The translations under genes were made by a program, and so were the position numbers. Shown one piece after another: positions 2,551 to 32,365 of a stretch of DNA of 64,000 nucleotides (position 1 is its first letter; every line of letters starts with the position of its first letter). Under the pieces are notes generated by a model. It worked only from the letters and a program-made list of their open reading frames with translations. It did not search any database and was not told where the DNA came from. This DNA is from an uncultured Acidobacteriota bacterium (GTDB lineage: Bacteria; Acidobacteriota; Thermoanaerobaculia; UBA5066; Gp7-AA6): contig CAVXRK010000011.1 in assembly GCA_963764025.1 (NCBI GenBank), positions 320,999-384,998 of the forward strand. Direction: 5' to 3'.

Positions 2551-4115
2551 GCCAGGCGTTCCTTGAGGTGCTCGCCGACCCGCAGCGCGTTCGCGATGAT
2601 GGTCAGCGCCGGATTTACGGCCGCCGAGGATGGGAAGAAGCTGCCGTCGACCACGTAGAGGTTGTCGAGGTCGTGCGCCTTGCAGTTCGAATCGAGCGCC
2701 GAGGCTTTCGGGTCGCGGCCGAACCGGGCCGTTCCGTTCTGGTGCGCCACCCCCGCGAGCGGGATCTTCTCGCCGAGAAAAAGGCTCCGTCCGAAAAGGC
2801 CGACGTGGCACGAGTCCCCGTGCATCGAGCACTTGCGCTGCTTCTGCATTGCCTTCTGCAGGGTCGCGCGGAGGCGCTCGTGCGCGGTCACGTTGTTGGG
2901 CTGGTACTTGAGAACGATGTTCCCGTCGCGGTCGAGCGTCACGCGATTCTCGGGGTCCGGCAGGTCCTCCGAGGTCAGCCAGAAGTCGAGCGAGTGCTTC
3001 GCCATCATCTCGAGCGTGAATCCCGGCGCGATCGCCGGCGCGCCCGCCGAGAGCGCGATGCCATCGAGCTTGCCGACGAAGGAGATGTGGCCCATCGGGT
3101 AGCCCCACTCCTTCGACGCAAAGTAGTAGTCGTTGACGCCGAGCGTCTTCTGGAAGACGGTCGGATTCGGGCAGCGCGAGATCGCGAGCAGGACCGAGTT
3201 GACGTGCCCCATGTAGTGCCGGCCGACGACGTCGCTCGAGTTCGCGAGGCCGTTCGGGTGCCTGTCGTTCGCCGACCGAAGGAGCAGCGCCGCCGAGTTG
3301 ATCGCGCCGCAGGAGACGACCACGACGTCGGCCGTGTATTCCTCGGGCACGCCTTCGCGCTCGACCGAGACTTTCGTCACACGGCGGCCCCCGGCATCGG
3401 TGTGGAGGCGCGTGACCTTCGCGCCGGTCTGCAGCGTCACGTTCGGGTGCGCCAGCGCCGGGTCCACGCAGCAGACCTGGGCGTCCGCTTTGGCCTGCAC
3501 CAGGCACGGGAACCCGTCGCACGACTCGCAACGGATGCACCTGGAAGCGCGGCGGTCCTTCTCGTTCAGCATGATGCCGAGGGGCACGTGGAAGGGGCGC
3601 AGGCCCTGCTGCTCGAAGTCGTCCGAGAGGTCCTGGATGCGGGGCTCGTGCGAGACGGCGGGGTGCGGGAAGGGGGTCGAGGCCGGCGGCTCCGTCGGGT
3701 CTTCGCCCCGGGTGCCGTGGACGCGGTAGAGCTCCTCGGCTTTCGCGTACCAGGGCTCCATCTCCGCATAGGAGATCGGCCACGCCGGCGAAACTCCCCC
3801 GTGGTGCCGGATCTCGCCGAAGTCCTCCTGGCGCAGGCGAAAGAGGGCGGCGCCGTAGAACTTGGTGTTCCCCCCCACCCAGTAGTTGGTGTGGGGATGG
3901 AGGTCCTTGCCGTGCTTGTCGCGCCAGACTTCCTTCGTGGCGTATTTGCCGTCGACGTTGACGGCCTTCGAGCTCCAGTTGTCCTTCTCGCGGGGAACGA
4001 AGTCGCCGCGCTCGAGCACCAGGATCCTCTTGCCCGTCGGCGCGAGCGACCAGAGCAGCGTCCCGCCCCCGGCGCCCGTGCCAATGATGATCACGTCGTA
4101 GTGGTTCGCGGACAT
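2547..4115 (-). CDS. GMC family FAD-dependent oxidoreductase
   Basis: MSANHYDVIIIGTGAGGG Rossmann motif with an AGGGGA SD upstream. C-terminal GMC_oxred_C-like HDLDNLYVVDGSFFPSSAAVNPALTIIA. Confidence 0.85.
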   Translation of the reverse strand: MSANHYDVIIIGTGAGGGTLLWSLAPTGKRILVLERGDFVPREKDNWSSKAVNVDGKYATKEVWRDKHGKDLHPHTNYWVGGNTKFYGAALFRLRQEDFGEIRHHGGVSPAWPISYAEMEPWYAKAEELYRVHGTRGEDPTEPPASTPFPHPAVSHEPRIQDLSDDFEQQGLRPFHVPLGIMLNEKDRRASRCIRCESCDGFPCLVQAKADAQVCCVDPALAHPNVTLQTGAKVTRLHTDAGGRRVTKVSVEREGVPEEYTADVVVVSCGAINSAALLLRSANDRHPNGLANSSDVVGRHYMGHVNSVLLAISRCPNPTVFQKTLGVNDYYFASKEWGYPMGHISFVGKLDGIALSAGAPAIAPGFTLEMMAKHSLDFWLTSEDLPDPENRVTLDRDGNIVLKYQPNNVTAHERLRATLQKAMQKQRKCSMHGDSCHVGLFGRSLFLGEKIPLAGVAHQNGTARFGRDPKASALDSNCKAHDLDNLYVVDGSFFPSSAAVNPALTIIANALRVGEHLKERLA

Positions 4116-5008
4116 CAGCGTCCCCTTTCCGCGGCGGCCGCGGCCGGCGGGCCGCACGGCCTGTAGCCGCACCGGAAGATGCAGCGATGGTCGTTCTCGT
4201 GGTGGAGCTTGGCGCAGAGAACCGAGCTCGTGCCCGAAAGTCGCAGGCGCAGCTTCGGCCGCCGCGAGCATGCCGATCGGCGGGAGCGACGAAGTAGATC
4301 CAGAGGTGGTCCCAGCGCCTGGCGGCCGCCGCCGAGCCGAAGGTCCGGGCCGGGTTCATGCTCATGCCCGAAATCGGGGCCTCGAACGTGATGAAGAGCG
4401 CCACGCAGGCACCGGCGGCGATCCCCGTGAAGCGGTTGGTCCGCGGATCGTTCGAGACCGCGAGCACCACGGTCATCAGGATGAAGGTGATGAGGACCTC
4501 GGCCCCGAAGGCGCGCGCGAGGCCCGCGGGCCCGGGGATCGTGACGGCGAAGTTGACCGCCGGGTGCCGCACCGCGGCGGAGAGGAAGAGCGCCGGCGAC
4601 GAGGCAGCCGGCGAACGCCCCGACAAACTGCGCGGCCGCGTAGAAGAGCGCATCCGGCGCCTCCACCTTGCCGAGCCGCAGGAACGTCAGTGTCGTCGCG
4701 GGGTTGATGTGCGCCCCGCTCCGCTTCCCCCAGCCCGAGTAGATGATCGCGACGGCCGTCATCCCCATCGCCAGGCCCATCAGCGCCCGGCGGACGAAGG
4801 GATCCGGCAGCGCGGCATGGACGGCCGATCCGGGATGCTCGAGGAGCGCGGCGAAGACGCAGGCCGACACCATGAAGAGCCCGAGGAGCGCTCCCTCGAT
4901 GAGGTATTCCGGCCAGTGCGCCCGAAGGGCCGCCGCCAGGACGCCGTTTCGCGGCGCGCGGCGGCCCGGGGCCGCCGGGGAGTCGAGGGATTCGCGCAGG
5001 GCCGTCAC
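4115..5008 (-). pseudogene. aquaporin/MIP family channel, disrupted by at least two ±1 frameshifts (possibly sequencing errors)
   Basis: The N-half (frame of 4115..5008) carries SGAHINPATT (NPA box 1). The C-half continues in the frame of the 1540..4653 ORF with GMSMNPARTF (NPA box 2). The TGA stop overlaps the ATG of the GMC gene. Confidence 0.6.
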
Positions 5009-5093
5009 GATGGCGCTTGGATGTCCGCGGAGCCTCCGCGGTTTCGCCTCCGCCGCGGGCGCCGAGTGCCGGTGGTAGCATCCGCGCGGCGGT

Positions 5094-6240
5094 TTGCCTC
5101 AAATGCCGTTGCTCCCGCCAGCCGAGCTGCCCGCGGACTATCCACCGCTGCTCGCTCTCGCTGAACGGCTCGGGTTCGTCCCTTCGATCTTCCCCGCGCA
5201 GGCCATCCTGCCGCGCGCGATCGAAGCGGAGACGCGACTCCTCCGCGCCCTCCTCATCGAGCCCGGGGCCCTCGGCTGGGAGCGCAAGGAAGAGATCCTC
5301 GTCGCCGTCGCGGCCGCCCGCCGCAACCGGTACTGCCTCGCGGTGCACGCCCGGGTTCTCGGGAACCTGGGCTGCGCCGCGCCGGACATCGCGGCGCTGG
5401 CCGAGGGGCCGCTTCGAGTCATTCGAGAAGAGCCGGGCCGCCCTGCTCGACTTCTCCGTCCGCCTGGCTCTCGCGCCGCTCTCGACCGGGGCGCCGGATA
5501 TCGAGCGGCTGCGGGCGGTCTCCGCGTCGGACGAGGAGATTCTCGAGGCCGTGCAGACGGCCGCCCTGGCGGAGTTCCTTTGCGCGCTCTCGACGGGTCT
5601 CGCCGCGGAGGTCGACGTGCCGATGCCACCCGCGATCCTCGCGGCCGTCGAGCCCGCGGCGGCGCGGGCATCGGCCCCGGCGGTCCCGCGCGCGCCCGGT
5701 GCTTACCTTCGCGCTGTGCCCCTCGCCCCGGACGCCTTCGGTCCGTTCGGGGAGCTCAAGGGCCGCTTCGGATTCGTTCCGGCGCTCTTCCGCGCCCAGA
5801 CGCTCACGCCCGGGGCCCTCGAAGCCGAAATCGAGGCACTGCGCGAAATCCTCCTGACGGAAGACGTCCTGAGCCGGCGGCAGAAGGAGCTCGTGCAACT
5901 CGTCGTCTCGGCGTGGAACCTCGACACCTACGGCGTCGCGCTCCACACCGAGCTCCTGCGCGGCCTCGGCGTGCCTCCCGAGGCCTCGGACCGCGTCGTG
6001 TCCGACCACCGGAACGCGGACCTTTCGGCGGCGGACAGGGCCCTTCTCGATTTCGCCTGGAGGATCACCGCCGAAGGGCCGGCCTACGGCGAATCCGACG
6101 CCGCGGCCCTGCGCGCGGCCGGGTTCTCGGATCCCCAGATCCTCGAGGCGATTGTCGTGACCTCGCTCGCCGGCTTCCTGAGCACGCTCGCGGCGGGACT
6201 TAACCCGAAGCCCGACTTCAAGCCGCGGCGCGACCTCGTC
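5094..6240 (+). CDS. tandem carboxymuconolactone-decarboxylase (CMD)/AhpD-like peroxidase-related protein; +1 shift in a GGGG run near 5409; 3' end uncertain
   Basis: Domain 1 is in frame 0 (FVPSIFPAQAILPRAIEAETRLLRALL...RRNRYCLAVHARVL). Domain 2 is in frame 1 (FVPALFRAQTLTPGALEAEIEALREILL...DTYGVALHTELL). Removing one G from GAGGGGCCG joins them. Confidence 0.65.
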
Positions 6241-6262
6241 GCCGAACGCGCCGCCACGGCCG

Positions 6263-6875
6263 CGCAGCGAGGCCGAGCGCGCCGCCGATCCCGACGCGGA
6301 GCTCGTCGCGCGCGCCCGCGGCGGCGACGTCGCAGCCTTCGAGGACCTCATCCGCCGCAACCAGGCGCGTATCTATCGGAACCCTCGCCGGCCTGACGGG
6401 CAGCGCCGAGGACGCCGAGGACTGCTGCCAGTCGGCGTTCGTCAAGGCGTTCCGGAAGATCGGCGACTTCGCCGGCGCCTCCCGGTTTTCGACCTGGCTG
6501 ACGCGGATCGCGATCAACGAGGGTCTCGATCGCCTGAGGAGCCGCCACCCGTCGGAGCCCCTCGACCTGGCGGCCGCCGGGGACGAGGAGTTCCGTCCTT
6601 CGCCGGGCGAAGCCTGGATCGAGGACCCGGAGCGGCTCTATGCCCGCGAGGAGACGCGGCGGCTCGTCCGGCAGGAGCTGGCGCGCCTGCCCGTGGCCTA
6701 CCGGACCGCCGTCATGCTGCGCGACATCGAGCAGCTCTCGACCGCCGAGGCGGCCGCGATCCTGGATCTGCCCGTGCCGACGCTGAAGACGCGGCTGCTG
6801 CGCGGACGCTTGATGCTTCGCGAAGCCCTGGCGGCGCACTTCGCCGCCGGACCTCCGGGGGCCCGCCCTGCTTAG
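6263..6875 (+). CDS. ECF (sigma-70 family group IV) RNA polymerase sigma factor; frameshift near 6385 (AA run); start codon not identifiable
   Basis: Region 2 reads DAELVARARGGDVAAFEDLIRRNQARIYR, then after the shift TLAGLTGSAEDAEDCCQSAFVKAFRKIGDF...STWLTRIAINEGLDRLRSRH. Region 4 reads AYRTAVMLRDIEQLSTAEAAAILDLPVPTLKTRLLRGR. No ATG/GTG/TTG lies in any frame between 6181 and 6290. Confidence 0.7.
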
Positions 6876-7107
6876 CTGCGACGACGTCCGGGCCGAGCTC
6901 TCGAACCTCCTCGACGAGGACGTGGCGCCGGAGGTGCGCCGAGCGCTCGAGCACCATCTCGCCGACTGCCGGACGTGCCGGATCCTCTACGACTCGACGC
7001 GCAAGACCATTCGGATCGTCACGGACGCGGGGGCGTGGGAGCTTCCGGCGGGAGCGTCGGAGCGGCTGACCGCGAAGATCCTCGCCGCGCTCGAGAAGAC
7101 CGACTAG
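6868..7107 (+). CDS. ZAS-type (zf-HC2) anti-sigma factor, cognate to the upstream ECF sigma factor
   Basis: LLSCDDVRAELSNLLDEDVAPEVRRALEHHLADCRTCRILYDS carries the HxxxCxxC redox zinc motif, as in RsrA/ChrR. Overlaps the sigma-factor stop. The only upstream in-frame candidate start is a CTG at 6868; an ATG is internal at 6922. Confidence 0.65.
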   Translation: MLSCDDVRAELSNLLDEDVAPEVRRALEHHLADCRTCRILYDSTRKTIRIVTDAGAWELPAGASERLTAKILAALEKTD

Positions 7108-7670
7108 CCGCGTCCGCCGGCGCCCGCGAGCACGATCTTCGAGGCGTCGAAGTCCGGCAGAGTTCCGAGGCCGAACGAAACGGTGTTCGCGAACTGCGCG
7201 ACGCCGACCATCAGGATCGTCTCGAGGATCTGCTGCTCGCTGAAGCCGTATGTCCGCAGGCCCTCGATGTCGTCCGCGTCGATCTTGAGCCCCTCTTTGT
7301 TGAGCTTCAGGGCGAAGTTGAGAAGCGCCTTGTCCTCGGCGGCGATGTTGGTGCGATTGTGGTCGAGCGCGATCTGCTCGGGCTCGGGCCCGTGGATCCC
7401 GAGCATGCGCACGATCTCGCAGTGCGCGGTCACGCAGTAGGTCGAAAGGTTCGCAGCCGAGCAGACGAGGAAGACGTACTCCTTCTGGCGCCTCGCCAGA
7501 GCCCCTTCCTTGACCATCACGCCGCCGATCAACGCGAGCTCGGCCTCGATCAAGTCGGGGCGCAACGTCTGCGCCCGGAAGAAGTTCGGAAGAAACCCGA
7601 AGGCTTCGCGGATCTGCTGGAACGGGGGGAACTCGGATTCGTCGATCGGCCCGCGGCCGATGTAACTCAT
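7104..7670 (-). CDS. CMD/AhpD-like peroxidase-related enzyme (single domain, 188 aa)
   Basis: Clean ORF: FLPNFFRAQTLRPDLIEAELALIGGVM...RRQKEYVFLVCSAANLSTYCVTAHCEIV. Paralogous to both halves of the 5094 gene. Convergent with the anti-sigma gene, overlapping it by 4 nt. Confidence 0.8.
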   Translation of the reverse strand: MSYIGRGPIDESEFPPFQQIREAFGFLPNFFRAQTLRPDLIEAELALIGGVMVKEGALARRQKEYVFLVCSAANLSTYCVTAHCEIVRMLGIHGPEPEQIALDHNRTNIAAEDKALLNFALKLNKEGLKIDADDIEGLRTYGFSEQQILETILMVGVAQFANTVSFGLGTLPDFDASKIVLAGAGGRG

Positions 7671-7741
7671 TGGAACCTCCCGGCTTGCAGACTATACCGC
7701 CCATTTGAATCTTTTCGGCGCCCCGGCCCGTCCAATGGACA

Positions 7742-8003
7742 GTGTTTTCCTGCGAGGCGCTCCGCCAGGCGCTGTCCGACCTCCTCGACGGGGAGGTCGA
7801 TCCGTCCGTCCGCCGGGAGGTGGAGATCCACCTTCAGGACTGCGCGGCCTGCCGGATCCTCTACGACTCCGCCCGGAAGACGCTCGCCGTCGTCTCGAAC
7901 GTCGGCACCTTCGACCTGCCGGCGCCGGTGTCGGAGAGGCTGGTTCGCCGGATCCTCGAGACCGTGCTCGACCCGCGCCACTCCGTCCCGGCCGCCTGTC
8001 CCG
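7742..8003 (+). CDS. second ZAS (zf-HC2) anti-sigma-like domain with no stop codon; continues by a +1 shift into the downstream sigma54 activator (possible fusion)
   Basis: GTG start. MFSCEALRQALSDLLDGEVDPSVRREVEIHLQDCAACRILYDSARKTLAVV is paralogous to the 6868 gene. The frame stays open to 8473. The sigma54 activator has no start codon of its own. Confidence 0.5.
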
Positions 8004-8010
8004 TCCCGGA

Positions 8011-10415
8011 CCGCGAAGGGAGACCGCCTCGAGGCCCTCCGCGCCTACGGCGTTCTCGACACCGGCCCCGAGGGGGCGTTCGACGACCTGGCCGACCTCG
8101 CGTCCCGGATCTGCCAGGCCCCGATGGCGCTGATCAGCCTCGTCGACCGGGACCGCCAGTGGTTCAAGGCCAGGGTCGGTCTCGACATTTCCGAAACCCC
8201 CCGCGAGATCGCCTTCTGCGCCCACGCGATCCTGGGTTCCGAACTGATGGTCGTCCCGGACGCCCGCGCCGACGCGCGGTTCGCCGACAACCCGCTCGTG
8301 ACCGGCGACCCCGGGATCCGGTTCTACGCCGGCGCGCCCCTCATGACCGACAAGGGCCAGGCCCTCGGAACGCTCTGCGTGCTCGACCGGGTTCCCCGCG
8401 CCCTCACCCACGACCAGACCGCGGCCCTCGCCACCCTCTCGCGCGAGGTGGTCGCCCGGCTCGACCTGCGTAGGGCCAACGCCGAGCTCGAACGGGTCGT
8501 CGCGGGAGAGCGCGCCGCATCCGAGGCGCTGCGGTCGAGCGAGGAATTCAAGACGCGGATGATCGAGTGCAGCCGCGACTGCATCAAGGTCCTCGACCTC
8601 GAAGGCCGGCTGCTCTCGATGAACGCCGGCGGAATGGAGGCCCTCGAGATCTGCGACATCGGCCAGTACCTGGGCGCGTCGTGGATCGACTTCTGGAAGG
8701 GCCCGGACCGCGACTCGGCGCGGGCGGCGGTGGAAGCCGCACGCAACGGCGGCATGGGTCACTTCGTCGGCTACTTCGAGACCGTTCAGACGCGGCAGCC
8801 TCGCTGGTTCGACGTCGTCGTCAACCCGATCCTCGGCTCGGAGGGCCGGCCCGAGAGCCTCCTCGCCGTCTCGCGCGACGTCACCGAGCGCAAGCGCTCG
8901 GAGGACCTTTTCCGGCGGCTGACGGAGGCCACCGCCGCGACGACGGGCGCCGGATTCTTCAAGACGCTCGTGGAGACCCTGGCCACGGCGCTCCGCGTCC
9001 GGTACGCGTTCGTCACGGAGTGCGGTCCGGGCGACCCGACGGCGCGGATGCTCGCGTTCTGGAAAAACGAGTCGATCGCGGAGAACCTCGAGTACGGCCT
9101 GGCCGGCACGCCCTGCGAGGCCGTCATCCGGGGCGAGGTGCGGTTCTACGCGGACCGGCTGGCCGAGCGCTTTCCCGAGGACACGGGCCTCGTCGACTGG
9201 CGGGCCGAGAGCTTCCTCGGCATCCCGATGGTCGGTCACGACGGCGTCGTCATCGGCCATCTCGCGGTTCTCGACGACCGGCCGATGAGCGAGGCGTCGA
9301 TCGAAATCTCAGTCCTGCGGATCTTCGCCGACCGCGCCGCGGCCGAGCTCGAGCGGCTGCGGGCGCAGACCGAGCTCGAGCGCCTCAAGGATCGTCTGCA
9401 GGCCGAGAACGTGTACCTGCAGGAAGAGATCCGCACGCAGCACAACTTCGAGGAGATCATCGGAAACGCGCCTCCCCTGCTCGACGCCCTTTCGAAGGTG
9501 GAGCGTGTCGCGCAGACGGATTCGACCGTGCTGATCGCGGGCGAGACCGGCTCGGGCAAGGAGCTCTTCGCGCGCGCCATCCACAGCCGGAGCGCCCGGC
9601 GCCAGCGGCCCCTCGTCAAGGTCAACTGCGGAGCGATCCCGGCCGGCCTCGTCGAAAGCGAGCTCTTCGGGCACGTCAAGGGCGCTTACACGGGAGCCCT
9701 CGACAGGCGCACCGGCCGGTTCGAGCTCGCCGACGGCGGCACGATCTTCCTCGACGAAATCGGCGAGCTTCCGCCGGAGACGCAGGTCAAGCTGCTGCGC
9801 GTGCTGCAGGAACGGGAGTTCGAGCCCGTGGGTTCGTCGCGCACGATCAAGGTCGACGTGCGGATCATCGCGGCGACCAATCGCGACCTCGAGGAGGAGG
9901 TCCGGCGCGGGCGCTTCCGCGCCGACCTGCTCTACCGGCTGAACGTGTTTCCGATCGCCGTCCCCTCGCTGCGGGAGCGGCGGGGAGACATCCCGCTGCT
10001 CGTCGCCTTCTTCCTGACCGGCCTCGCCAAGCGGCTCGGCAAGCCGCTCGAAGGTTTCACGCGTTCGTCCATGAACGAGCTCTGCGCGTACTCCTGGCCC
10101 GGCAACATCCGGGAACTGCAGAACGTCGTGGAGCGAGCGGCGATCCTCGCGCCCGGGCCGACGCTCGAGGTGGAGCGGGGCCTGCTGCGGGGCGATCCGG
10201 CGGCGGCGACATCGGCGTCCGCATGGACGGCCCCGTCCGGCGGCGGCGCGAAGCTCGTCGAGATCGAGAAGTCCCACATCCGCGAAGTCCTCCGCTCGAC
10301 CCGGGGCGTGATCGAAGGTCCGGCCGGCGCCGCCCGACGCCTCGGCCTTCATCCCAACACGCTTCGGAGCCGCCTCAAGAAGTACGGCATCGAGCCCCGC
10401 CACGAAGCATCGTAG
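8011..10415 (+). CDS. sigma54-dependent transcriptional activator with a GAF-PAS-GAF sensor, AAA+ sigma54-interaction domain and Fis-type HTH
   Basis: GAF: [51 protein letters not shown]: [29 protein letters not shown]+: [22 protein letters not shown]-terminal HTH: [23 protein letters not shown]. No ATG/GTG/TTG upstream in frame. Confidence 0.8.
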
Positions 10416-10552
10416 CGACCACGAAATTTCGTGGCGCAGGGGCCGCGGCGCGAACCCCGCCAAAATGTATAAGCGACTGAATCCAAACGACTTCGGTCTG
10501 CCACTCGGCCGCCGAAAACCTGGCTCCGCCGTTGCTCTTGCAGGGGTCAGCC

Positions 10553-10795
10553 ATGTTGAGAATCAGCAAAGCCAACGAATGCCTGGTGGTCGAGGGACGG
10601 GTGGCCGGACCCTACGTCGACGAGCTCGCACGGGCGCTCGGGGACGCCGCGGGGATGAAGGCCATCGACGTCTCCGGCGTGGGGTACGTCGACGCGGCGG
10701 GCGCCAGGCTCCTGCAGCGGCTGGTGAAGCAGGGAATCGCGATCCGCGGAAGCTCCGCGTTCGTCGCCGAGACCCTGAAAGGAGCGTCGTCGTGA
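10553..10795 (+). CDS. STAS-domain protein (anti-sigma-factor antagonist-like)
   Basis: MLRISKANECLVVEGRVAGPYVDELARALGDAAGMKAIDVSGVGYVDAAGARLLQRLV. Its stop overlaps the GTG of the downstream ECF sigma (GTGA). Confidence 0.65.
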   Translation: MLRISKANECLVVEGRVAGPYVDELARALGDAAGMKAIDVSGVGYVDAAGARLLQRLVKQGIAIRGSSAFVAETLKGASS

Positions 10796-11433
10796 ACGTC
10801 GAGCTCTCACGCCGGATTCCGGATGCCGAGCCCGCGCCCGGGGCCGCGCCGGCCCTCCCCGGAGAGGCCGGGCTCCTCGAGCGGCTGCGCCGCGGCGACG
10901 AGGAGGCCTGCGAGATGCTCGTGCGCGCGCACAGCGGCCGGCTCCTGTCGGTCGCGCGGCGTTACCTGCGGTGCGAGGAAGACGCGCGCGACGCCGTCCA
11001 GGAAGGGTTCGTCGCGGCGTTCCGGGCGATCGGACGCTTCGAGGGCGGCTCGAGCCTCTCGACCTGGCTGCATCGCATCGTCATCAACGCGTGCCTGATG
11101 AAGCTGCGCTCGAGCCGGCGCCGCCCGGAGACATCGATCGAGGAACTGCTCCCGAAGTTCGACGAGTCCGGCCATCGCGTCGCGGAGCCCGAGGAATGGC
11201 GCGAATCCGCCGAGACCGCGCTCGACCGCAGTCAGACGCGGCGACGCGTCCGCGAGGCGATCGCGCAGCTTCCCGAGCACTACCGCTCCGTCCTGTTGCT
11301 CCGCGACATCGAGGAGCTCTCGACCGCCGAGGCCGCGCGCCTTCTCAACCTCACCGAGAACGCGGTCAAGATCCGCCTCCACCGCGCCCGCCAGGCCCTC
11401 CGCACCCTCCTGGGGTCAGCCCTGCAAGTCTGA
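10792..11433 (+). CDS. ECF sigma factor (sigma-70 group IV)
   Basis: GTG start. Region 2: LLERLRRGDEEACEMLVRAHSGRLLSVARRYLRCEEDARDAVQEGFVAAFRAIGRFEGGSSLSTWLHRIVINACL. Region 4: HYRSVLLLRDIEELSTAEAARLLNLTENAVKIRLHRARQAL. The last residues GSALQV and the stop are encoded by a REP element. Confidence 0.85.
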   Translation: MNVELSRRIPDAEPAPGAAPALPGEAGLLERLRRGDEEACEMLVRAHSGRLLSVARRYLRCEEDARDAVQEGFVAAFRAIGRFEGGSSLSTWLHRIVINACLMKLRSSRRRPETSIEELLPKFDESGHRVAEPEEWRESAETALDRSQTRRRVREAIAQLPEHYRSVLLLRDIEELSTAEAARLLNLTENAVKIRLHRARQALRTLLGSALQV

Positions 11434-11460
11434 AACTTGGGGTCAGCCCTGAAAGAATGA
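11412..11460. repeat. REP doublet (two direct copies of GGGGTCAGCCCTG(C/A)AAG...TGA) on the left flank of the RAYT
   Basis: Direct sequence match to the elements at 1388-1409 and, inverted, at 12451-12500. Confidence 0.8.
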
Positions 11461-11512
11461 CACTTCGGGGGCGGCTCGCGACAATCTAAAGACAGGGGCG
11501 GAGGCTGGAGCG

Positions 11513-12496
11513 ATGTCGCGTGCGCCGCGGATCGAAATCGCCGGAGGCGTCTACCACGTGATCGCGCGCGGGAACGAACGGCGCGACATCTTTCGAGACG
11601 ACTCCGACCGGCATCTCTACCTGGCGCGCCTCGCGGAATGCCGTGACCGATACCGATTCGGAGTCCTCGCCTACTGCCTCATGCCGAATCACGTCCACCT
11701 CGCCGTCGAACGAGGCCCGGTTCCCCTTTCAAAGATCATGCTCGCGCTCCACTCCTACTACAGCCAGAAATTCAATTTTCGACATGAGCGTGTCGGGCAC
11801 CTGTTCCAGGGCCGATACAAGGCTTTTCTGGTCGAACTCGACCGATACCTCGCTGCGCTCGTTCGCTACATCCACCTGAACCCGGTCAAGGCCGGCGTCG
11901 CCGATCGACCCGAGAGCTATCCGTGGTCGAGCGACCGGTGGTATCGCGAAGGTGGCGGTCCAAGCTGGCTCGACGTCGACTTCGTCCTCGCGCGTCTTGC
12001 GCCCAGCCGGTCCAGGGCCTGCGCCGCTTACCGGCGGTGGATGGGGTCCGGTGAACCGGACGACTACGACCGCGCGCGCCCGATCGGCCGCGTCGTGAAG
12101 GGCGACGAGAAGTTCGCCAAACGCTCGATGCGCGAGGCCCGCGTCACTCTTCCCAGAAGAAGTGGTTGGACGCCGTCGAGGTTCGCCGCCGCCGCGAGCG
12201 CGTTTCAGGGATTCTCACTCGGCCGGCTGAAGGGACCGTCCCAAGCCCGAGCGGAGTCACGGGCTCGGCTGATCACGGTCTTCGTCGCGAGGCGCGATCA
12301 TTCGATTCCAGCGTCGGCGCTGGCCAGGTGCTTCGACCGCGACGAATCCGCGTTCGCGCACGGCCTCCGAAGGCTCGAACGTGCGATCGCACGAAATCCA
12401 GAGCTCGCAAGGCACGTCGAGCGCGTGGCCGCCGCGCTGGGCCCCGAAGCGTCAGACTTACAGGTCAGGCCCCAGATTTCAGACTTTCAGGGCTGA
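11513..12496 (+). mobile_element. REP-associated tyrosine transposase (RAYT; IS200/IS605 Y1 HUH family) with a C-terminal extension
   Basis: RIEIAGGVYHVIARGNERRDIF...VLAYCLMPNHVHLAVE (HuH motif)...HLFQGRYKAFLV (catalytic Tyr region). Flanked by inverted REP doublets. The ORF reads through into the right REP (…SDFQG*). Confidence 0.8.
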
Positions 12497-12500
12497 CCCC
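12451..12500. repeat. REP doublet in inverted orientation on the right flank of the RAYT
   Basis: TCAGACTTTCAGGGCTGACCCC is the reverse complement of GGGGTCAGCCCTGAAAGTCTGA, preceded by the variant GTCAGACTTACAGGTCAGGCCCC. Confidence 0.8.
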
Positions 12501-13946
12501 AGGTCGAGGAGGGAGTTGAAGGAGCCGTGGGGGTCGGCCTCGCGCAGCGAATGGGAGGGGTCGGGGAGCCAGCGGGCCCCGTCGACGACGAGCTTGTAGC
12601 GGTGGCGGCCGGGCGGCGGGGCGGGGAGAGCCGGCGCGCCACACGCCGTCCGCCTGCCGCGCCATCGGAAGGCGCGACGCGTCCCAGCCGTTGAAGTCGC
12701 CGGCCACGGCGACCGACGTGGCGTCGTCGTCGTGGAAGGTGAAAACGAGGCGGCCGTCCTCGACGCGGGGCGGCCCACCGACTCGGCCGGCGCCGGCGTG
12801 CGCCTCCCGCCGCGCGACCGCCACCGCCGCGGCGGGGTCCACGACGCCATGCCCCTGGCGCAGCGCCGCGATGCCCGGGACCGGGCTCGCGCTCGCGAGC
12901 AGGATCCGGCGGACTTCCGCCGGCGTGAGCGCCGGATTGGCCTCGAGCATCTGCGCGACGACCGACGCGACGACCGGCGCCGCGAACGAGGTCCCGTCCA
13001 CGTGCTGATAGTGCGCAGCCACGATCTTCTCGGCGCGAAGCCGCTCTTCGACCCAGCTCCGCAGTGCCGCCGCCTGACGCGGGAGCTCCGGGATTCCCCC
13101 ACGGACCTCGTCCGCGAGACGCGCCAGGCGGTAATCCGGCGCCGATGCCAGCCGTGTCAGCGTCTGCGCGCGCCGCCAGGCCGGCGTGCCCGGCAGGATC
13201 GGCGCCGCGACCCACATCGCCGGAGCGATCAATTCCGGCTTGACGAGACCGTCGGCCGTCACGCCGAAGCTCGAGCAGTACGCCGCGAGGTGCCGCCGCT
13301 CGGGATCGTTTGCGTCGTCATATCCGCCGACGGCGATGACCGAGGGCGCCGTGGCTGGAGGCAATACGCGGGGCGCGGGTCCGCACCCGGAATTTCCCGC
13401 GGCGGCCACGAGCACCATGCCGCGGGCGACGGCCGCCTCGGCGAGCTGGTTGATCCGGCTCTCCGCGAGCGTCCGGTCCGCGTCGCCGCCGAGCGACATG
13501 CTGACGATCCGTATCGCGTGCCGTTCGTGGTTCGCGAGCACCCACTCGAGTCCGCGCTCGATCGCGTCGTCGGTGATTCGCCCGTCCCGCCCCACCCGCA
13601 CCAGCACGAGCGCCGCCTCGGGCGCGAGCCCGCGGTAGACGCCGTCGGAAAGCAACCCGCTGCCGGCGGCCGCGACGCACGTCTGCGTGCCGTGCCAGCA
13701 GTCCGGGGCCGGTATCTCCGCGTTCTCCAGCATGCCCTGCGGATCGTGGACGTCGTGATACGCCCGGATCCGCTCGCCCGGCTCGGTGATGTCGGGATGG
13801 GGATGGAAGCCTGAGTCCAGGAAGGCGACCGTCACCCCGCGGCCGCGGAGCGTCCCGTCGTCGCCGAAGCGCTCCGGGGTCGAGACCACGGCGAACCGAT
13901 TGGGCGCGTGGCCGTGGCCCGCGTGCAGCTCTCCCCCGTCGCTCAT
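12479..13946 (-). CDS. cytoplasmic S8 subtilisin-like serine peptidase with a C-terminal CBM48/E-set (glycogen-binding-like) domain; one frameshift near 12650
   Basis: Catalytic triad in context: VAFLDSGF (Asp), HGTQTC (His), GTSFAAPVVAS (Ser). No signal peptide. C-terminus reads RLVFTFHDDDATSVAVAGDFNGWDASRLPMARQADGVWR, then continues in the adjacent frame as ALPAPPPGRHRYKLVVDGARWLPDP (shift in a GG run). The stop is supplied by a REP. Confidence 0.75.
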
Positions 13947-29587: not shown

Positions 29588-29962
29588 GCCTTGCCCGTCG
29601 CCCGAGCGCCAATCGACTTGCCCGTCGCCCGAGCGCCAATCGACTTGCCCGTCGCCCGAGCGTCGATCGACTTGGCACCCGCACGAGCGTCAATCGACTT
29701 GGCCCGTCGCCCGAGCGCCAATCGACTTGCCCGTCGCCCGAGCGCCAATCGACTTGCCCGTCGCCCGAGCGCCAATCGACTTGCCCGTCGCCCGAGCGCC
29801 AATCGACTTGCCCGTCGCCCGAGCGCCGATCGACTTGGCCCGTCGCCCGAGCGCCGATCGACTTGCCCGTCGCCCGAGCGCCAATCGACTTGCCCGTCGC
29901 CCGAGCGCCGATCGACTTGCCCGTCGCCCGAGCGCCAATCGACTTGCCCGTCGCCCGAGCCG
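29588..29962. repeat. 27-nt tandem direct repeat array, about 14 copies, unit CGACTTGCCCGTCGCCCGAGCGCCAAT, with a few 28-nt and variant units, inside a coding sequence
   Basis: Direct inspection. Units differ by A/G at one position. Two units are 28 nt (TTGGCCCG versus TTGCCCG). Confidence 0.95.
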
Positions 29963-30100
29963 AGACCGAATGGCTCGTGGGCGAATGCGTCGGGATCCGC
30001 CGAAGCTCTCGACGCGAATCTCGGGCAGGTCCTTGCCCGTGGCTTCCTTGATCTTGGCCTTCTGAGCGTCCGTCAGCTTGATCTTGACTTCGTTACCCAT
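29690..30100 (-). CDS. tandem-repeat protein of unknown function (unique N-terminus followed by 9-aa repeats)
   Basis: GAAGGAGGG SD 8 nt before the ATG. N-terminus MGNEVKIKLTDAQKAKIKEATGKDLPEIRVESF. The repeats read as (LGRRASRLA)n or (GKSIGARAT)n depending on frame; the 28-nt units switch frame. A terminator follows the stop. Confidence 0.65.
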   Translation of the reverse strand: MGNEVKIKLTDAQKAKIKEATGKDLPEIRVESFGGSRRIRPRAIRSRLGRRASRLALGRRASRSALGRRASRLALGRRASRSALGRRAKSIGARATGKSIGARATGKSIGARATGKSIGARATGKSIGARATGQVD

Positions 30101-30132
30101 GTGAAACCCTCCTTCTTGATGCCAATACAAGA

Positions 30133-30149
30133 GGCAAGAAGAGGGCCAG
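30133..30149 (-). promoter_or_regulatory. sigma54 (-24/-12) promoter CTGGCCCTCTTCTTGCC upstream of the repeat-protein gene
   Basis: GG-N10-GC spacing with TTGC at -12. About 35 nt upstream of the ATG. An NtrC-family activator is encoded immediately upstream. Confidence 0.55.
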
Positions 30150-30235
30150 AATTGGCGACGCCTGCCTCCGCTCCCAAGCCTTTCGTTTTCAGTTGCTTGC
30201 AAAAGAGCTCCGCCGATCGTCAGGGCCGGCTGGTT

Positions 30236-30272
30236 GAAACTTCCTTTCACCGAGGTTGAATTTCTCAACCGG
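30236..30272 (-). promoter_or_regulatory. candidate enhancer (UAS): inverted repeat GGTTGAG-aaat-TCAACC plus a third TTTCAACC half-site
   Basis: A palindrome about 100-130 nt upstream of the sigma54 promoter, in the intergenic space between the response regulator stop and the repeat gene. Confidence 0.35.
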
Positions 30273-31653
30273 TCAGAGCCCGTGCTTCCGGCAGAGATAC
30301 TTGATCTGGTTGGCGTCGAGCCCCAGGCGGCGAGCCGCTTCCGCCTTCACCCCGCCGGCCGCCGCGATCGCCTCCGCGAGCGTCCGGCGCTCGAAATCCT
30401 CGACGGCCGACGCGAAGTCGCGGACCGTGGATGCCCCGCCGCCCGCGGGAGCGCGCGGCGCCTCCCGGAGGGCCCGCGGAAGCTCCTCCTCGCCGATCTC
30501 GGGCGCGTCGGAAAAGAGGACGAGCATCTCGACGACGTGCTGGAGCTCGCGCACGTTGCCCTTCCACGCGTGGGCCCGAAGCCGGGCGAGGGCGCCCTCG
30601 GAGAAGCGGCGCCCGGTCTTCCCGTGCCGCTGCCCGAAGAGCGCCAGGAAATGGTCGGCGAGCAGCACGATGTCTTCCCCGCGTTCGCGCAACGGCGCGA
30701 TCCGGAGCGGAACGGTGTGGATCCGGTAAAACAGGTCCTCGCGGAACGTTCCGGCGGCGACCCGCGCTTCGAGGTCCTCGTTGGTGGCCGAAATCAGCCG
30801 GAAATCGACGGGGATCGGCCGCCGTCCGCCGACGCGCTCGACCACCCGGCTCTCGAGCACCCGGAGGAGCTTCGACTGCACCCCGGGCGAAAGTGTGCCG
30901 ATCTCGTCGAGGAAAATCGTTCCGCCCGAGGCGAGCTCGAACCGGCCGGGCCGCGATGCGATCGCGCCCGTGAAGGCGCCCTTCTCGTGGCCGAAGAGCT
31001 CCGCCTCGGCGAGCGACTCCGGCAGCGCCGAGGCGTTGACCGGCACGAATGCGCGGTCGCGCCGGGGGCTCGCGGCGTGGATCGACTGCGCGACGAGGTC
31101 CTTGCCCGTCCCGCTCTCCCCCGAGATGAGCACGGTCGCGTCGCTGCCGGCGACCCGCTCGATGTCGCGGGCCAGGGCGAGCATGGGCGCGCTCCGGCCG
31201 ATCAGCCGGTCGAGGGAGCGGGAGGGCTGGGCGGCCGCACGGAGCTCGCGGTTCTCGACGAGCAGCCGCCGGCGCTCGAGCGCGCGGTCGAGGATCAGGA
31301 GGAGCTCCGCCGTGTCGATCGGCTTCTGGAAGAAGTCGAAGGCGCCGAGCGCGACCGCCTGCAGCGCGTACTGCCGCTCCCCCTCTCCGGACATCATCAC
31401 GACCGTCGCCTCCGGGTCGCGCTCCCGCACGTAACGCAGCAGGTCGAGCCCCTCCTGCACCTGACCGGAGGGCGGCAGCCGCATGTCGAAGAGGTAGAGG
31501 TCCGGGTCCGAGGCGCAGAGCGCCCGGCCGTGGGTCGCGTCGCGGGCCGACGACACCGCGAACCGTCCCTTGAGCGCCCAGGTCAGCTGCTCGAGGAGAA
31601 AGGCGTCGTCCTCGACGATGACGATCCGTCCCAGGGGACGCGCCGGCTCGGTC
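30273..31653 (-). CDS. sigma54-dependent two-component response regulator (NtrC family: REC + AAA+ + Fis HTH)
   Basis: GTG start overlapping the kinase stop (GTGA). REC domain: RIVIVEDDAFLLEQL...DLYLFDMRLP. AAA+: GESGTGKD, GAFTGA, ELFGHEKG. C-terminal HTH: AEAARRLGLDANQIKYLCRKHGL. The listed ORF start is an upstream in-frame GTG. Confidence 0.85.
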
Positions 31654-32365
31654 ACCCCGCCTCCCCGGCGCTCCCCGGCAGCGACAGGCGGATCAACGTC
31701 CCCCCGCCCGGCTGCGAAAGGATCCGGATCGATCCCCGGTGGAACTTCACGATCTGGCTGGCGGTCGACAAGCCGAGGCCCACGCCTTCCGGTTTCGTCG
31801 TCTCGTACGGCTGGAAAAGTCGGTCCCGCAGGAACTCCGGCGTCATCCCGGCGCCATTGTCGATGAATTCCACGACCGCGCGGGGCCGCCGCGCGGAGCC
31901 GCCCGTGTAGGTCCGCACGAGGACCTTGCCCTCGGGAATCGCCGCCTCCCACGCGTTCTCGAGCAGGCTCGCGAATGCGTCGCCGAGATAGACCGGGTCT
32001 CCCCAGATCCGCGGAACGTCGCCCAGCGCGAGCGACACGGACGGGCCGTCCCCGGGCGTTCCGCGCGCGCCGCGGCGCGTCGGCTTGCCGGCGATCTTCC
32101 GGAGCAGCTCATTGACGTCGAGCTCGACCTTGACCAGCAGCGCGTCCTCGCGCTCGACGAAACGGCCGGCGATGTCCTCCAGCCGCTCGACGGTCGACGC
32201 CAGGAGGTCGCGTACGGTTTTTCGGAACTCCCCGTCCTCCCAGTGCTCGTCCAGGTTGGACAGCAGGAGCCGGAGGCGAAACGACATGTTCTTGACGTCG
32301 TGGACGAGCACGCGGTCGAGCGCCGAGCGCAGGCGCGCCGAGGAACGGGGCCGTTTCGGCGGCAT
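31652..32365 (-). CDS. histidine kinase (HisKA + HATPase_c) with no sensor or TM domain
   Basis: H-box LVHDVKNMSF. N/G-boxes: LGDAFASLLENAWEA...VEFIDNGAGM...GVGLGLSTASQIV. 237 aa. Confidence 0.75.
   Translation of the reverse strand: MPPKRPRSSARLRSALDRVLVHDVKNMSFRLRLLLSNLDEHWEDGEFRKTVRDLLASTVERLEDIAGRFVEREDALLVKVELDVNELLRKIAGKPTRRGARGTPGDGPSVSLALGDVPRIWGDPVYLGDAFASLLENAWEAAIPEGKVLVRTYTGGSARRPRAVVEFIDNGAGMTPEFLRDRLFQPYETTKPEGVGLGLSTASQIVKFHRGSIRILSQPGGGTLIRLSLPGSAGEAG

Follow-up and report, generated by a model that had tools for sequence, protein, structure and literature searches.

The 64,000-nucleotide stretch of an uncultured Acidobacteriota bacterium analysed here (contig CAVXRK010000011.1; "the window" below means this whole stretch at its full length) carries at positions 7742-10415 of the forward strand what we read as a single gene for a cytoplasmic regulator of about 890 amino acids, in which a zinc-finger anti-sigma domain of the ZAS type is followed by a short, poorly conserved linker, a GAF-PAS-GAF sensory region, the AAA+ domain of a sigma54 activator and a Fis-type helix-turn-helix (HTH). 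As written, the gene is interrupted by one frame break, most likely an insertion specific to this assembly that arose as a sequencing or assembly error, and the native gene is very probably one fused open reading frame (ORF). Genome comparison indicates that the fusion is intact, and under purifying selection, in several related Acidobacteriota/Thermoanaerobaculia genomes, and that the ZAS part has as its orthologue, in relatives without the activator, a free-standing anti-sigma gene translationally coupled to the extracytoplasmic function (ECF) sigma factor that the window has at 10792-11433. The ZAS domain would be the orthologue of the cognate anti-sigma factor of an ECF sigma encoded two genes downstream.

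The GC content of the window is 68.6%, a composition at which spurious long ORFs are frequent and openness alone is therefore insufficient to judge frames; the coding frame was assessed by third-position GC and with a seven-state composition model. A sequence-only reading had recognised a ZAS-like ORF from a GTG at 7742 by its HLQDCAACR motif, and this identification is borne out by a zf-HC2 match (PF13490; 38.5 bits when the domain is scored alone, 33.6 bits as part of the fusion, cut-off 22.2) with the ligands H30-x3-C34-x2-C37 plus C4. The same reading held that the ORF has no stop codon, which is true of the end of the domain, near which none occurs in its own frame, but not of the frame as a whole, which closes at 8471-8473 after about 150 codons of wrong composition (low-complexity Arg/Pro text beyond about residue 93). 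The activator frame is open over 6975-10415 and was correctly described as startless upstream of its first GAF domain: from 6975 onwards the first ATG, GTG or TTG is the ATG at 8124, already within GAF1. Third-position GC is about 0.9 or above on both sides of the junction and its phase shifts by +1 in the interval from about 7990 to 8040, where there is no non-coding gap, the composition model placing the frame switch at 7998.

Removal of one base from GAAGGGAGAC at 8015-8024 gives an 890-aa protein, so that the proposed repair by deletion of a single G stands, with the correction that the G-run lies at 8018-8020 and not near 8003, some 15 nt away. The surplus base may equally be A8016/8017, because the corrected protein (..PDREGDRLEAL..) is identical either way. 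Pfam finds in this protein, in order, zf-HC2 (residues 4-38), GAF (110-237), PAS_4 (277-385), a second GAF, Sigma54_activat (572-738), AAA_lid_14 and HTH_8 (838-881, at the C-terminus, 36 bits). The Sigma54_activat domain scores 243 bits and has the GETGSGKE and DEIGE motifs; its L1 loop reads GAYTGA in the window and in two relatives (L006, L007) and GAFTGA in three others (L005, L010, L066).

Using the ZAS-domain alignment, we scanned one genome per GTDB species, which gave 61 loci, and then metagenomes, which added L066 and L067. Three Acidobacteriota metagenome-assembled genomes (MAGs) encode the fusion as an uninterrupted ORF (L005, 884 aa; L006, 888 aa; L007, 890 aa) with a ZAS part 87-90% identical to that of the window, and a Thermoanaerobaculia MAG (L010, on a contig with a k141-type name) encodes it as a single ORF of 878 aa, 54% identical, in which every domain is found by Pfam. 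An intact fused ORF of 883 aa is also present on the 39.5-kb JGI contig L066, and L067, which resembles P0001, has ZAS and GAF in one frame and runs off the contig end. A fifth MAG (L008) has the same gene with frameshifts of its own. Two of the five contigs with an unbroken fusion are named in the style of short-read assemblies. The protein-database searches yielded the fused fragment P0273 and the 374-aa fragment P0001, for which no contig is on record and in which ZAS, linker, GAF and PAS stand in one frame, 58% identical over the whole 250-aa query. These uninterrupted and fragmentary fusions support the original suggestion that ZAS and activator form one protein. An exhaustive HMMER search with P0001 returned mostly ZAS-less GAF-PAS proteins and no additional fusions, and none of about 130 other ZAS-related loci has ZAS fused to an activator, the long ones having FecR/Kelch, beta-propeller or TENA domains. 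The fusion appears to be restricted to one Acidobacteriota/Thermoanaerobaculia clade, with a conserved locus.

Compared with L006 or L007, the window has a ratio of non-synonymous to synonymous substitution (dN/dS) of 0.05-0.19 in each of the domains, the same as is seen between intact orthologues, so that relaxed selection is not indicated. The ZAS domain (0.07-0.23) is constrained similarly to the AAA+ (0.05-0.13) and HTH domains, the linker having values of 0.2-1.0. HLQDCAAC satisfies the H-x3-C-x2-C motif, the fourth zinc ligand, C4, stands 26 residues before H30 as the counterpart of C11 in RsrA, and all four ligands are invariant across all fused and stand-alone relatives. Over positions 3-75 a ZAS-family profile can be aligned with the solved anti-sigma domain of RsiW (5wuq_C, E=5.6e-5), with weaker matches to DdvA and RsrA; the RsrA equivalog TIGR03988 gives 34.5 bits and does not reach its cut-off of 62.5, so that the domain is related to RsrA without being RsrA. 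On this evidence the ZAS domain is probably functional in the fusion. The redox-sensing input suggested by the sequence-only reading is plausible.

The nearest stand-alone relative of the fused domain (ZAS2, as distinct from the upstream paralogue ZAS1) is P0271, a protein of 82 aa that is 64% identical over the whole domain length and occurs on three JGI contigs (L002-L004) syntenic with the window at 75-81% nucleotide identity. The order on L003 is ZAS1, CMD (minus strand) and ZAS2; on L002 and L004 the ZAS2 gene overlaps the start of an ECF sigma gene, which on L002 is followed by a Y1 transposase gene. The ECF sigma at 10792-11433 of the window is 81% identical to the sigma overlapping ZAS2 in L002, and L009 has a similar ZAS-sigma pair, with a sigma 57% identical to the one in the window. 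The region 7885-10892 of the window (linker, activator body, spacer and STAS-like gene) is missing from these stand-alone relatives, in which ZAS2 is a conventional anti-sigma gene beside its sigma, and no other anti-sigma gene adjoins the ECF sigma in the fused loci. The sequence-only reading had asked whether orthologues would show two genes with a stop after the ZAS domain; the stand-alone loci that bear on this (P0271 in L002-L004; L009) contain no activator gene and their ZAS gene abuts an ECF sigma, so the comparison is not applicable to them. On a short ENA contig (L001, 1131-1325) the ZAS2 homologue P0272 becomes unrelated after CRILYDSARKT, near where the contig stops; a chimeric or truncated end of the contig is a more probable cause than another architecture.

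The DNA around the fusion gene contains motifs that may connect it to both sigma systems (Table 1). Promoters of the ECF type have AAT/AAC at -35 and CGTC at -10, and a motif of this form lies just upstream of the GTG start; TGAATC-N15-19-CGTCC has this single match in the window, and the motif does not vary across 9 aligned loci, two of which are the stand-alone ZAS2 loci L003 and L004; it is present in L067 too. We infer that it acts as a promoter. A relaxed search for ECF motifs was uninformative, with hits below chance expectation, and a second ECF promoter upstream of the CMD-sigma gene was not definable because the alignment is too poor there. Ahead of the STAS-like gene, TGGC-N7-TTGCT, the -24/-12 form of a sigma54 promoter, has one match in the 64 kb (0.22 expected by chance), which stands at the same position in L005-L008, L010 and L066 (7 loci with the window), with TGGC and TTGCTC invariant. 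The looser TGGC-N7-TTGC has two further matches in the window, at 30134 and 34935, the former belonging to a different activator. Neither a sigma70-type promoter nor an intrinsic terminator was predicted in the spacer after the activator gene. Two tandem near-palindromes, sites A and B, are conserved islands within an otherwise diverged intergenic alignment. They make up a candidate upstream activator sequence, which lies some 100 nt ahead of the -24 element and to which the activator may bind; no second copy of the palindrome was found in the window. Both predicted promoters end 6-18 nt before a start codon (7729-7742; 10534-10553), so that the mRNAs would be very short-leadered or leaderless. 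In L010 the spacers at both promoter-to-start positions are longer.

Table 1. Features of the window around the ZAS-activator gene (window positions; insertions are single nucleotides unique to the window in the 12-kb alignment with L005-L008)
Feature	Position	Strand	Basis and remarks
Aquaporin gene	4115-5008	-	Insertions at 4257, 4281 and 4584
CMD-ECF sigma gene	5094-6875	+	CMD/AhpD-like domains fused N-terminally to an ECF sigma; insertions at 5404, ~6258 and 6380
ZAS1, stand-alone paralogue, 79 aa	6868-7107	+	Pfam zf-HC2; coupled to the upstream CMD-ECF sigma gene
CMD/AhpD-family gene, 188 aa	7104-7670	-	Divergent; Pfam CMD 24.1 bits; syntenic in all related loci
Putative ECF-type promoter	7706-7736	+	TGAATCTTTT, 17-nt spacer, CGTCCAAT; lies 6-10 nt before the GTG start codon
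ZAS domain and ~15-aa linker	7742-8020	+	Frame mod3=2; aa 1-93, domain aa 1-78; ligands C4, H30, C34, C37
ZAS-activator junction	8016	+	Insertion
Surplus-base site	8016-8021	+	AAGGGA; MAFFT, 1-nt insertion relative to L005, L006 and L007
Enhancer-binding protein body	8022-10415	+	Frame mod3=0; Pfam domains, orthologous full-length ORFs; stop codon 10413-10415
GAF1	8070-8453	+	Pfam
PAS_4	8571-8897	+	Pfam
GAF2	~8940-9380	+	Pfam
Sigma54 AAA+ domain	9456-9956	+	Pfam; GAYTGA at 9681
AAA lid	9972-10175	+	Pfam
HTH_8	10254-10385	+	Pfam
Near-palindrome, site A	10400-10415	+	CCACGAAGCATCGTAG; overlaps the activator stop codon
Near-palindrome, site B	10419-10434	+	CCACGAAATTTCGTGG; downstream of the stop codon; contains a perfect 14-mer palindrome, the only one in the window
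Sigma54 -24/-12 promoter-like element	10521-10536	+	TGGCTCCGCCGTTGCT; 18 nt before the ATG of the STAS-like gene
STAS-like gene, 80 aa	10553-10795	+	Pfam STAS_2 24 bits, under the cut-off of 29.2
ECF sigma factor (sigma-B)	10792-11433	+	Pfam Sigma70_r2, r4_2, ECF; start overlaps the STAS stop codon (GTGA)
S8 peptidase gene	12465-13946	-	Insertion at 12631

The cause of the frame break was sought by aligning 12 kb of the window with L005-L008, with MAFFT at the junction. Relative to L005, L006 and L007 the window has exactly one extra base at the junction, where the orthologues read PDREGERL, PDREAERL or PDREDERL; L008 has indels of its own in this region, separate from that of the window. At least eight 1-nt changes unique to the window occur over 4257-12631 (about 8 kb), all of them insertions, and the break, being one of these, is most likely an assembly error. 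The composition model finds frame switches that match the insertions and two more, at about 28222 and about 35759 (both on the plus strand), which fall in a membrane protein and in an M48/HtpX-like peptidase. Insertion errors thus reach about 1 per kb in places, and in so insertion-rich an assembly split genes are not to be taken at face value: "broken" genes of the window need comparison with relatives before they are interpreted.

Other accounts of the broken frame were weighed against an assembly error in a fused gene. If ZAS and activator were separate genes, the one for a free-standing anti-sigma factor and the other with an atypical start codon, this would agree with the occurrence of 79-86-aa stand-alone ZAS genes in relatives (P0271; L009) and with the nearest ZAS-less activators (e.g. 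P0121), which begin 8-12 residues before the ERLxAL motif; however, the ZAS frame runs without a stop as far as 8471, no ATG, GTG or TTG precedes 8124 in the activator frame, the activator gene is wholly absent from the stand-alone ZAS loci and every locus with an activator beside ZAS2 encodes one ORF, so that we regard this arrangement as very improbable. A real frameshift, leaving a recent pseudogene or a gene split into a junk-tailed ZAS protein and an N-terminally truncated activator, is less easily dismissed, since the clustering of six window-unique insertions within 4257-8016 could mean a decaying locus. All eight lesions are nevertheless +1 insertions scattered over unrelated genes (aquaporin, CMD-sigma, peptidase), with more switches at about 28222 and about 35759; in-frame stop substitutions are not seen, codon periodicity is intact and the window branch has a dN/dS as low as that found among intact orthologues. 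If translation began at the ATG at 8124, moreover, the activator would be missing the first 35 GAF1 residues. A real frameshift is in our view improbable. The sequence at the junction, CGC GAA GGG AGA CCG, would also permit programmed +1 ribosomal frameshifting at GGG-AGA, in which the P-site Gly-tRNA slips from GGG to GGA while the AGA codon, expected to be rare at 69% GC, is awaited, and such a slip gives exactly ..REGDRLEAL..; we rejected it as scarcely credible, as the intact orthologues are all in frame at the junction and have no such site, and at least seven other +1 insertions of the window lie in unrelated sequences.

With a single fused gene as the preferred reading, we put the probability of the overall explanation, which includes a cascade from sigma54 to the ECF sigma, at about 0.8 for its anatomy, and the individual mechanistic steps range from about even odds to a modest balance in favour. 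Judging from conservation, the activator would bind the palindromes at the 3' end of its own gene and, with sigma54-RNA polymerase, would transcribe the STAS-like gene together with that of the ECF sigma; this sigma would in turn drive the promoter ahead of the fusion gene, which may have been retained from a stand-alone anti-sigma/sigma operon, and the activator would thereby belong to the regulon of the ECF sigma. The ZAS domain may bind this same ECF sigma and/or sense thiol oxidation through its Cys/His zinc site, oxidation or zinc loss freeing the sigma, and its bound or free state, together with GAF and PAS signals, may set AAA+ assembly. Two options would follow: bound sigma could inhibit the activator (homeostatic feedback), or oxidation could free the sigma and also start its synthesis (amplification). 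With the anti-sigma domain of this very sigma built into the activator, sequestration and synthesis would be coupled in one polypeptide. The fusion protein probably both switches on a stress sigma factor and holds it in check. That it is a bifunctional, "sigma-sensing" activator, whose anti-sigma domain holds the sigma it transcribes and whose occupancy or oxidative release feeds back on AAA+ assembly, we propose only tentatively.

In the main alternative the fusion is likewise real, but its ZAS domain has lost sigma binding and gates the AAA+ domain purely as a zinc/thiol (redox) sensor or a protein-interaction module. Such an input would suit the conservation of the zinc ligands and the neighbouring genes of the CMD/AhpD family, which is typical of oxidative-stress loci; in enhancer-binding proteins, moreover, ATPase assembly is often controlled by the N-terminal domain (PMC7175178). 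Against it, the domain shares 64% identity over its full length with a stand-alone protein whose gene is coupled to this ECF sigma, no other anti-sigma gene lies beside the sigma in the fused loci and the upstream ECF-type promoter is kept in both the fused and the stand-alone forms; we consider an input of this kind, with no sigma binding, rather unlikely. Redox sensing and sigma binding could hold together.

Several observations weigh against the reading of one fused gene within a sigma54-to-ECF circuit. There is a small chance that the frame break is a very recent real lesion in this organism. Queries with the fused N-terminus of the protein returned from protein databases only the fused fragments P0001 and P0273 and many GAF-only or ZAS-only proteins, so that the full-length evidence consists of contig translations. 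Both promoters and the enhancer are motif calls supported by conservation alone, and site A overlaps conserved C-terminal codons, so that its conservation may be a coding constraint. An AlphaFold2 model of the ZAS domain built from 22 sequences was poor (predicted local distance difference test, pLDDT, 64; predicted template modelling score, pTM, 0.45; odd beta-strands) and was not used; Foldseek with this low-confidence model gave no significant fold matches, only noise. The STAS-like protein has DAAG in its motif DVSGVGYVDAAG, an Ala replacing the phosphorylatable Ser, and no HATPase-type partner kinase gene adjoins its own. An ORF with an RpoN box (rpoN) was not found within the 64-kb window.

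The conserved order of the locus is aquaporin, CMD-ECF sigma, ZAS1, CMD, ZAS2-activator, STAS-like gene, ECF sigma and S8 peptidase. The STAS-like gene is confined to loci that carry the activator fusion, being kept in L005, L007, L010 and L066 and absent from L002, L004 and L009; as a SpoIIAA/RsbV-type anti-anti-sigma factor it was rejected for its score below threshold, its missing phosphorylatable Ser and the lack of an adjacent kinase. The CMD-ECF sigma gene is a single ORF of 584-591 aa in L005, L006 and L010 (Pfam CMD, Sigma70_r2 and r4_2), and its CMD domains are an unusual N-terminal extension for an ECF sigma. Orthologues of ZAS1 have an ATG start overlapping the upstream stop codon; ZAS1 of the window has CTG where all four close relatives have this ATG, and its next in-frame start, GTG at 6922, would drop the first zinc ligand. 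An IS200/Y1-transposase-like gene (11513-12496, plus strand) follows the ECF sigma in the window, as in L002, and no comparable ORF was found at that position in the composition-filtered ORF lists of L005-L007.

Elsewhere in the window, a second sigma54 activator of REC-AAA+-HTH architecture lies within 29590-32365 on the minus strand (GAFTGA at 30980), after a histidine kinase gene, and just downstream of it are a sigma54-like sequence, TGGCCCTCTTCTTGC, at 30148-30134 (minus strand), then a small ORF (MGNEVKIKLTDAQKAKIKEATGKDLPEIRVESFGG..) and a 27-nt tandem repeat of 13.7 copies (29590-29960), where coding periodicity is weak. A third ORF with a ZAS-like HxxxCxxC motif (..EFERHLGVCDPCREY..) occurs at about 24297 on the minus strand.

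The individual parts of the fusion have well-known counterparts. With class I ZAS anti-sigma factors (RsrA/SigR of Streptomyces; RsiW-SigW, 5wuq) it shares the C-x26-H-x3-C-x2-C zinc site, the linkage to an ECF sigma and an ECF-type promoter upstream, and its domain of about 78 residues aligns end to end with the anti-sigma domain of RsiW; it differs in forming the N-terminus of a sigma54 activator instead of a separate protein and in having no transmembrane or extracytoplasmic part after it. Anti-sigma domains are known as stand-alone or membrane-anchored inhibitors. The PhyR-NepR-EcfG system of Alphaproteobacteria is comparable in that a module of a sigma/anti-sigma pair has been grafted onto a signalling protein; in PhyR, however, a receiver bears a domain that resembles a sigma factor, and the protein works as an anti-anti-sigma factor, whereas the fusion has an anti-sigma domain on an activator.

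As an enhancer-binding protein the fusion resembles NifA, FhlA and NorR (groups 2 and 3 of PMC7175178) in its GAF/PAS sensory region, its clade-6 AAA+ domain with a GAFTGA-type loop, its Fis-type HTH and the enhancer-like repeat and -24/-12 promoter nearby, and differs from them by the extra anti-sigma domain before the sensory region. Enhancer-binding proteins have been classed by their N-terminal input into those with a receiver, with PAS/V4R/ACT, with GAF or with none, and none of the five regulatory-domain groups has an anti-sigma domain (PMC7175178). Activators closest to it in sequence, P0121 (827 aa) among them, begin directly at GAF and have no ZAS, and the neighbourhood of P0121 is unrelated, with no STAS or sigma gene nearby. 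A parallel in circuitry is the HrpR/HrpS-HrpV-HrpG system of Pseudomonas syringae, in which the ECF sigma gene hrpL has a sigma54 promoter that HrpR/S activate (PMC8999054; PMC3105312): shared are an enhancer-binding protein at a sigma54 promoter before an ECF sigma gene, protein-protein contacts and, with HrpS, the GAYTGA loop variant, which is a natural, active form there (PMC3105312). HrpR/S differ in having no regulatory domain and in being controlled in trans by HrpV and HrpG, whereas the fusion has its protein-binding module in cis, a homologue of the anti-sigma factor that belongs to the sigma whose synthesis it would drive. In the full-text library searched, no literature was found on zf-HC2 with Sigma54_activat or on an anti-sigma domain on an activator, although architecture databases may list the combination uncommented. 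The parts are ordinary; the combination of an anti-sigma domain with a sigma54 activator is new relative to the enhancer-binding protein groups of PMC7175178.

An ECF-type promoter, the fusion and a sigma54 promoter of the cognate ECF sigma together suggest a compact circuit in which one molecule would control both the synthesis and the sequestration of a stress sigma factor, and close relatives, which have the same anti-sigma/sigma pair with no activator, provide a natural control. If the sigma-sensing activator is true, a sigma factor of the sigma70 family would serve a sigma54 activator as its ligand and a single polypeptide would link the two sigma systems, with the co-acquired STAS-like protein as a third partner.

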